Positions 47,031 to 47,554 of a DNA stretch of 47,554 nucleotides are shown one piece after another. Location of the stretch: the NCBI RefSeq assembly GCF_003334385.1, contig NZ_QOWN01000034.1. One strand, given 5' to 3'. The translations under genes and the position numbers were made by a program. Position 1 is the first letter of the stretch; every line of letters begins with the position of its first letter. The notes below the pieces were generated by a model. It worked only from the letters and a program-made list of their open reading frames with translations. It made no database searches and was not told the DNA's origin. Source of the DNA: Escherichia coli. GTDB taxonomy: Bacteria; Pseudomonadota; Gammaproteobacteria; Enterobacterales; Enterobacteriaceae.

Positions 47031-47190
47031 AATTGTTGTCTCTTTGATTATGTACAATCATATGTACAAAGAAAAATTCATGCCGCTGATTGTACATTTT
47101 GGAGGTATCAGAGCATAGCAGAACATGATCAGTAGGTGTATTTGTAGCCAAAGAACATTTGTACATGCAGCAATCTTTGCTCTATTGACA

Positions 47191-47234
47191 CTGTTTATTT
47201 ATACAGTTAAAGATAATGCTGTATGCAAACACAG
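47191..47234. promoter_or_regulatory. Two LexA (SOS) boxes in the promoter of the DinI-like gene
   Basis: CTGTTTATTTATACAG (47191-47206) and CTGTATGCAAACACAG (47219-47234), both CTGT-N8-ACAG; a TTGACA -35-like hexamer sits at 47185-47190. Confidence 0.7.
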
Positions 47235-47249
47235 TGTAGAGGGAGTTTT

Positions 47250-47498
47250 ATGCGTATTGAGATCTGCATAGCCAAAGAGAAAATGACTAAAATGCCAAAC
47301 GGTGCTGTGGATGCGTTAAAGGAAGAATTAACCCGACGCATCAGTAAGCTTTATGACGATGTGGATGTGATCGTAAAATCTGCCAGCAATGATGGACTGA
47401 CAATTTTAAGATCCGTGGATAAAGAGTCTGCTCAAAAGTTCGTTCAGGAAACGCTGCAGGAAGTCTGGGAAACCGCGGACGACTGGTTTATTCGGTAA
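47250..47498 (+). CDS. DinI-family (DNA-damage-inducible protein I-like) protein, 82 aa
   Basis: [82 protein letters not shown] aligns along its length with E. coli DinI as recalled (MRIE..IAK......GA.DAL..EL.RRI.......V.........L.......K......E.LQE.WE.ADDWF); GAGGGAG SD 5 nt upstream. Confidence 0.8.
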
Positions 47499-47507
47499 AT
47501 CTTCTTT

Positions 47508-47538
47508 ACGGGGAGTTAACTTACTCCCCATTTTTTAT
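47508..47538 (+). terminator. Rho-independent terminator after the DinI-like gene
   Basis: GGGGAGT-TAACTT-ACTCCCC hairpin followed by ATTTTTTA. Confidence 0.75.
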
Positions 47539-47554
47539 TGCATGATAATTGCAG

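Follow-up and report, generated by a model that had tools for sequence, protein, structure and literature searches.

The window analysed here is a stretch of 47,554 nucleotides of Escherichia coli DNA, and its right end holds the release factor RF3 gene prfC (45444-47030, minus strand), a divergent intergenic region (47031-47249) and a DinI-like family gene (47250-47498, plus strand). The prfC gene is chimeric, with codons 1 to 16 derived from a phage and codon 17 to the end derived from the chromosome, and the identical gene is annotated in RefSeq as a prfC of 528 amino acids whose N-terminus is unlike that of K-12. The window ends 55 bp past the DinI-like gene and includes no further gene of the inserted element.

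The window was collinear with K-12 through prfC up to position 46982 and unrelated to it from 46983 on. In K-12 the gene order is holD-rimI-yjjG-prfC-osmY with all genes on one strand, and yjjG is located directly upstream of prfC as the sequence-only reading had expected. By this alignment the core chromosome of the window ends on the right at 46982/46983, and the foreign DNA amounts to 572 bp (46983-47554) rather than the 520 bp given in that reading. Directly to the left of the boundary is the attR copy of the attachment-site common core, GGGTGAGAAATAAT (46969-46982, 14 bp), which is present once in the window. On the prfC sense strand the core reads ATTATTTCTCACCC and encodes the codons I-I-S-H-P at the start of the GTP-binding motif. 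When attB (K-12), attL and attR of the E. coli genome NZ_AP045180 and attP of phage cdtI were compared, GGGTGAGAAATAAT was the only stretch common to all of them. To the right of the boundary is a phage-supplied surrogate for the prfC 5' end comprising the first 16 codons (46983-47030, minus strand), which was identical to the attP of phage cdtI. The altered 5' end of prfC remarked upon earlier is therefore real and is this phage-borne surrogate, which diverges from K-12 at 46983, and the phage origin of the first 16 codons explains the unusual RF3 N-terminus without mutation.

The spacer of 219 bp between the divergent prfC and DinI-like genes (47031-47249) corresponds to the P' arm of the attachment site. 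Of the 267 nt between the core and the ATG of the DinI-like gene, 260 were identical to the attP of phage cdtI, and all seven differences were located at or beyond 47180. Read from left to right, the junction consists of chromosomal prfC, the common core and a P' arm as in a known attP, which is the structure of a cdtI-type attR at the level of sequence. Four copies of ATGTACAA were identified in the arm, at 47050-57 (+), 47062-69 (+), 47090-97 (-) and 47159-66 (-), and these were the only copies in the window relative to an expectation of 1.26. The arm on the integrase side of this type of phage had four more TGTACA motifs (L002, positions 28950-29015; cdtI segment L004, positions 3765-3822), and the integrase of the NZ_AP045180 prophage described below contains Arm DNA-binding, central and catalytic phage-integrase domains. 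The ATGTACAA copies are candidates for, and probably are, arm-type integrase binding sites. The expression signals of prfC in a lysogen must be located in phage-derived DNA, where a search for a phage-supplied minus-strand prfC promoter gave weak candidates only (-10 sequences TATGAT ending at 47057 and CATAAT ending at 47047).

Several other departures from K-12 were noted in the window at a distance from prfC. Downstream of dnaJ, K-12 has IS186A, and positions 1-54 had no match to the K-12 sequence there, so that the alignment between the window and K-12 started at position 55 (K-12 coordinate 15412). The toxin kinase gene hipH (yjjJ), which is 1.3 kb long and flanked by deoD and lplA in K-12, was missing at 33962-34250, and its place was taken by an unrelated helix-turn-helix ORF of 87 amino acids (~33995-34258, plus strand), as annotated in JNEC-KY204 (WP_000566150.1). 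The yjjV-yjjW intergenic region (41376-42166) included a tandem array of a 101-bp unit with 7.8 copies at 95% identity, the counterpart of which in K-12 is 414 bp long and consists of approximately four units. The 101-bp units resemble palindromic elements of the REP/BIME type.

The DinI-like gene runs from an ATG at 47250 to a TAA at 47496-47498 and encodes a protein of 82 amino acids. The list of open reading frames also offered a version of 91 amino acids beginning at an upstream ATG (47223), but the shorter form was favoured because the Shine-Dalgarno sequence GAGGGAG (47239-47245, plus strand) is located 4 nt before its ATG and because the identical gene in RefSeq has the same start. The gene is followed by an intrinsic terminator (47510-47539, plus strand) with a GC-rich stem of 7 bp, a 6-nt loop and a T-run. 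The terminator stem (47510-47529) had a folding energy of -13.6 kcal/mol (z = -4.6) and none of 200 shuffled sequences folded as well, while a scan of 46900-47554 against Rfam identified no RNA family at E <= 1. An 82-residue plus-strand DinI-like gene with a strong Shine-Dalgarno sequence and its own terminator had been described in the sequence-only reading, and each of these features stood up to the analysis, with the coordinates of the elements exact or off by a base or two.

The 82-amino acid protein matched the Pfam family DinI (PF06183) over the full model (1-63 of 63, E = 7.7e-20) and PHROG 189, annotated as 'RecA filament binding protein DinI' (E = 3.4e-28), and was identical to RefSeq WP_032219474.1, a 'DinI-like family protein'. 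Residues 1-81 were aligned with the DinI entries 1GHH and 7YWA of the PDB (E = 2e-13). A failure to align with the DinI family, raised earlier as grounds for abandoning the assignment, was not observed, as the protein aligned end to end with DinI. It has the family's organization of approximately 80 amino acids in a single domain, and the acidic C-terminal helix is kept when compared with LQETWESADDWF in 1GHH. This helix is the part of DinI-family proteins that contacts RecA. The score against NCBIfam NF007893, the equivalog model for chromosomal DinI, was 72.7 bits and below the cut-off of 111, which indicates a paralogue within the DinI family and not the product of chromosomal dinI. Judged by these matches, the protein is a prophage-borne DinI paralogue rather than DinI itself, and its biochemical equivalence to DinI is assumed here.

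The coding region of the DinI-like gene was found to be a mosaic relative to phage cdtI and to most of its IMG/VR relatives, where the promoter and the first ~100 nt were near-identical and the 3' half had diverged. In the diverged half 33-41 of 50 nt were identical per bin (47250-47498 compared with positions 4268-4516 of the cdtI segment L004), and the window protein and the cdtI version shared 63 of 82 amino acids. The gene is represented by at least two alleles, and the difference between them falls in the C-terminal half that contacts RecA.

Upstream of the DinI-like gene is a -35 hexamer TTGACA (47185-47190, plus strand), which is directly followed by the first of two LexA boxes. Only weak -10 sequences were identified in a relaxed scan, either TAAAGA with a spacer of 17 nt or AAAGAT with a spacer of 18 nt, each with three of six positions matching. 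A consensus promoter scan of the window did not call the promoter of the DinI-like gene because its -10 matches at those three positions only. LexA box 1, CACTGTTTATTTATACAGTT (47189-47208, core 47191-47206), fills the spacer between the -35 and the -10, and LexA box 2, TGCTGTATGCAAACACAGTG (47217-47236, core 47219-47234), is located around the expected transcription start. Both boxes are perfect CTGT-N8-ACAG motifs at -59 and -31 relative to the ATG, and they are the only such sites in the 47.5 kb, where 0.49 would be expected by chance per window. The TTGACA hexamer and the pair of tandem boxes had been recognized before, and they are present where they had been placed. With an approximate weight matrix for LexA based on known K-12 sites, boxes 1 and 2 were the two top-scoring 20-mers of the window at 25.3 and 18.4 bits, while known sites scored from 13.1 to 28.6 bits and the next best 20-mer scored 13.7 bits. 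With box 1 in the spacer and box 2 at the start site, tight repression would be expected, and LexA would bind at both predicted operators.

The third-best 20-mer on the same matrix was CACTGAATGCTAAAACAGCA (21725-21744), whose 13.7 bits are close to the lowest score of a known site. It was placed in the rob-creA intergenic region by collinearity with K-12 and may well be a chance match.

Relatives of the DinI-like protein were identified at 80 IMG/VR loci by local tblastn, and the 51 loci with enough upstream sequence were reduced to 21 distinct promoters. Both LexA boxes were kept at -59/-60 and -31 in 20 of these 21 promoters, directly after TTGACA or, in a few, after TTGATA. Box 2 was conserved at -31 even in variants in which the N8 spacer had changed and the CTGT and ACAG half-sites were kept. 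The sequence further upstream belonged to at least four unrelated contexts, and the neighbours, which were identified by reading ORF translations and not by search, included a dusA-adjacent integrase, an integrase with an Xis-like gene, smpB (the ssrA site), tail-fibre genes and prfC. These fixed box positions across unrelated upstream contexts indicate that the promoter, operators and gene form a conserved and portable module which, as far as these neighbourhoods can be read, is located near the ends of several lambdoid prophages. The conservation is stronger evidence for the LexA boxes than are the motif scores.

Over 25 kb of the window the best match among the complete genomes searched had 99.2% identity, and the genomic context of the DinI-like gene was followed in complete genomes that matched at 100% or 99.5% across the junction. 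NZ_AP045180 was 100% identical to the window over 46900-47554, and in that genome the DinI-like gene was the terminal gene of a complete-looking lambda-like prophage of ~49 kb. The gene after it was convergent, and the region beyond included small hypothetical genes, a YadA-C-terminal-domain gene and genes for tail fibre, gpJ and tape measure, continuing with capsid, portal, terminase, lysis, Q and cro genes and a LexA-family (cI-type) repressor. At the far end were a tyrosine integrase, a 69-bp remnant of the prfC 5' end and an intact yjjG. The same neighbours, followed by lambda-like tail genes, were present in two more complete genomes, one with 100% and one with 99.5% identity to the window across the junction. 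All three of the closest complete genomes therefore have a lambda-like prophage that ends with the DinI-like gene, and of these NZ_AP045180 was traced end to end and the other two were read at the DinI-like end. The sequence-only reading had proposed a prophage or genomic island at prfC located mostly beyond the window, and the prophage in the identical NZ_AP045180 supports it.

The junction was identified in 479 of 5426 complete E. coli genomes (8.8%), counted as a match over at least 80% of window 46900-47554 so that prfC, the arm and the DinI-like gene were contiguous. It had also been asked whether the DinI-like gene might be a normal core gene of K-12. This was ruled out, as K-12 has yjjG at that position and the junction is restricted to the fraction of genomes above.

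In phage cdtI (NC_009514) the order of features was integrase, attP with an identical core and a surrogate prfC 5' end, DinI-like gene and cdtCBA, and its prfC type of integration was checked directly in the phage sequence. The integrases of the cdtI phage and of SXT have been described as one cluster that targets prfC (PMC8138268), and prfC is listed both with the protein-coding genes of E. coli in which prophages integrate (PMC3603311) and with the insertion sites of Stx phages (PMC8065619). The Stx1a/Stx2c phages of E. coli clonal complex 119 (CC119) are long-tailed and integrated at prfC (PMC10132054). The segment 46983-47554 thus very probably belongs to a temperate, lambda-like phage of the prfC-integrating cdtI or Stx1a-Stx2c type, of which it forms the end next to attR, bearing an SOS-controlled gene of the DinI family.

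[quoted passage not shown] In a by-eye alignment to ATcATcTCtCACCCtGA, the 14-bp phage core overlapped prfC bases equivalent to the 17-bp SXT/R391 core. By this alignment, the crossover of SXT-type conjugative elements appears to involve the very prfC bases that lambdoid phages use, in keeping with the published clustering of their integrases. The overlap of the SXT/R391 site with the same ATTATTTCTCACCC bases (PMC9058013; PMC2786100) and the grouping of SXT/R391 integrases with the cdtI-phage integrase (PMC8138268) would be compatible with an SXT/R391-type ICE or another genomic island at prfC instead of a phage. However, the element side of the junction matched lambdoid phages and prophages. 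The 572 bp aligned with phages cdtI, 2H10 and PhiR63_1 and with Stx1a/Stx2c phages over 89% of the length at 88-91% identity, and with lambda-like prophages in complete genomes at 100%, and an ICE was rejected on this sequence identity as an exceedingly improbable explanation. An element that has decayed to a remnant, or to a short scar near the att site at prfC, in place of a complete inducible prophage, is unlikely but carries some weight, as no more than 572 bp of it are visible in the window, E. coli often harbours defective lambdoid prophages (PMC2669165) and the prophage of NZ_AP045180 has pseudogenes including tail fibre fragments, DUF551 and ead genes. Against a remnant, long blocks of lambda-like structural genes adjoin the DinI-like gene in all three of the closest genomes. 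In addition, the P' arm was 97% identical to the attP of phage cdtI, which is reportedly inducible, going by the title of Asakura et al. 2007.

For the regulation of the DinI-like gene, it was considered whether the two CTGT-N8-ACAG motifs might be chance palindromes, in which case the gene would be constitutive or silent and not SOS-regulated. At least two such motifs appeared somewhere in the window in 8 of 100 shuffles, and the -10 is poor. Both motifs, however, are located within 44 bp between a perfect -35 and the Shine-Dalgarno sequence, their scores are inside the range of bona fide K-12 sites, and the identical spacing in all but one of the 21 distinct promoters occurs with wholly different sequence further upstream. 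LexA control has also been described for the dinI homologues of the Gifsy prophages, which have a LexA box upstream and from which DinI protein accumulates after mitomycin C (PMC3121763). A chance origin of both motifs was consequently regarded as quite improbable.

For a lambda-like prophage at prfC with an SOS-controlled DinI-like gene, the following sequence of events can be proposed. A tyrosine integrase of the SXT cluster would recombine the phage into the 14-bp core in the prfC 5' end. As attP carries a surrogate prfC 5' end consisting of 16 codons and upstream signals, RF3 would remain intact after integration, and the old prfC 5' fragment together with yjjG would be displaced by approximately one prophage length. 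The DinI-like gene would then be the first phage gene after the junction and would serve as a stand-alone accessory gene. In an undamaged lysogen LexA would keep the DinI-like gene off by occupying both operators, the one within the promoter spacer and the one around the transcription start, while after DNA damage RecA-stimulated self-cleavage of LexA would derepress it. The DinI-like protein may then bind RecA filaments via its acidic C-terminal helix and modulate filament stability and coprotease activity, as does DinI, for which action on RecA filaments has been described (Yasuda 1998; Voloshin 2001; Lusetti 2004, cited by PMC3121763 and PMC10575684).

The sequence-only reading had gone further and stated that DinI homologues modulate prophage induction, which is not established. 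Non-polar dinI deletions in the Gifsy prophages had no significant effect on induction (PMC3121763), and any such role of a prophage DinI homologue is therefore putative. For the gene in the window, we infer RecA binding by its product and any effect that it may have on prophage induction. A DinI-like prophage gene was among the regions linked to the emergence of quinolone-resistance mutations by comparative genomics (PMC10575684). It is conceivable, although a long shot, that the DinI paralogue is not a redundant copy and acts as a phage timing device tuning the RecA* coprotease, and that RF3 expression is phage-controlled or damage-sensitive in lysogens. Such a device could spare or delay cleavage of the phage's own cI-type repressor or of the repressors of rival prophages. 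RF3 expression could become phage-controlled or damage-sensitive because the prfC promoter region and 16 codons are replaced by phage DNA beside two LexA operators.

The phage type, integration site, attachment strategy, gene family and SOS control have all been documented before, and the result is mainly one of annotation in that the core-chromosome boundary and a lambda-like prophage at prfC are flagged in this strain. The locus adds no new leverage on the role of prophage DinI paralogues. Stx1a/Stx2c, Cdt-I and the effector Cif are known to be carried by phages of the prfC type, and the rest of the contig is therefore worth checking for virulence cargo.

The closest known counterparts differ from the window in particular respects. 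E. coli chromosomal DinI (1GHH, 7YWA) is equal in length to the window protein, has a single DinI domain and is ~47% identical to it by manual count, and the C-terminal LQE-WE-ADDWF is conserved in both. Chromosomal dinI is likewise under LexA-box control, with one LexA box compared to the two of the window gene. Phage cdtI has the same core, surrogate prfC 5' end, order of integrase, attP and DinI-like gene, tandem LexA boxes and integration site as the window, whereas its DinI-like allele differs in the 3' half and cdtCBA is located beside the gene where genomes identical to the window have small hypothetical and YadA-C-terminal-domain genes. The Stx1a/Stx2c phages of CC119 share the integration site at prfC. 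The SXT/R391 elements resemble the element in the window in their use of the prfC 5' end, the overlapping core and the integrase cluster, but they are conjugative elements and not phages, and they had no sequence similarity to the 572 bp of the window. [quoted passage not shown] 2011, PMC3121763) also have a dinI homologue with a LexA box and promoter that is SOS-induced, as is proposed for the window gene. In Gifsy, dinI heads an operon that also includes irsA and an antirepressor (gfoA/gftA), which drives induction. The window gene, in contrast, is monocistronic, with its own terminator, a convergent next gene and no antirepressor following, and the repressor of the NZ_AP045180 prophage, unlike the Gifsy arrangement, is of the self-cleaving LexA/cI type.
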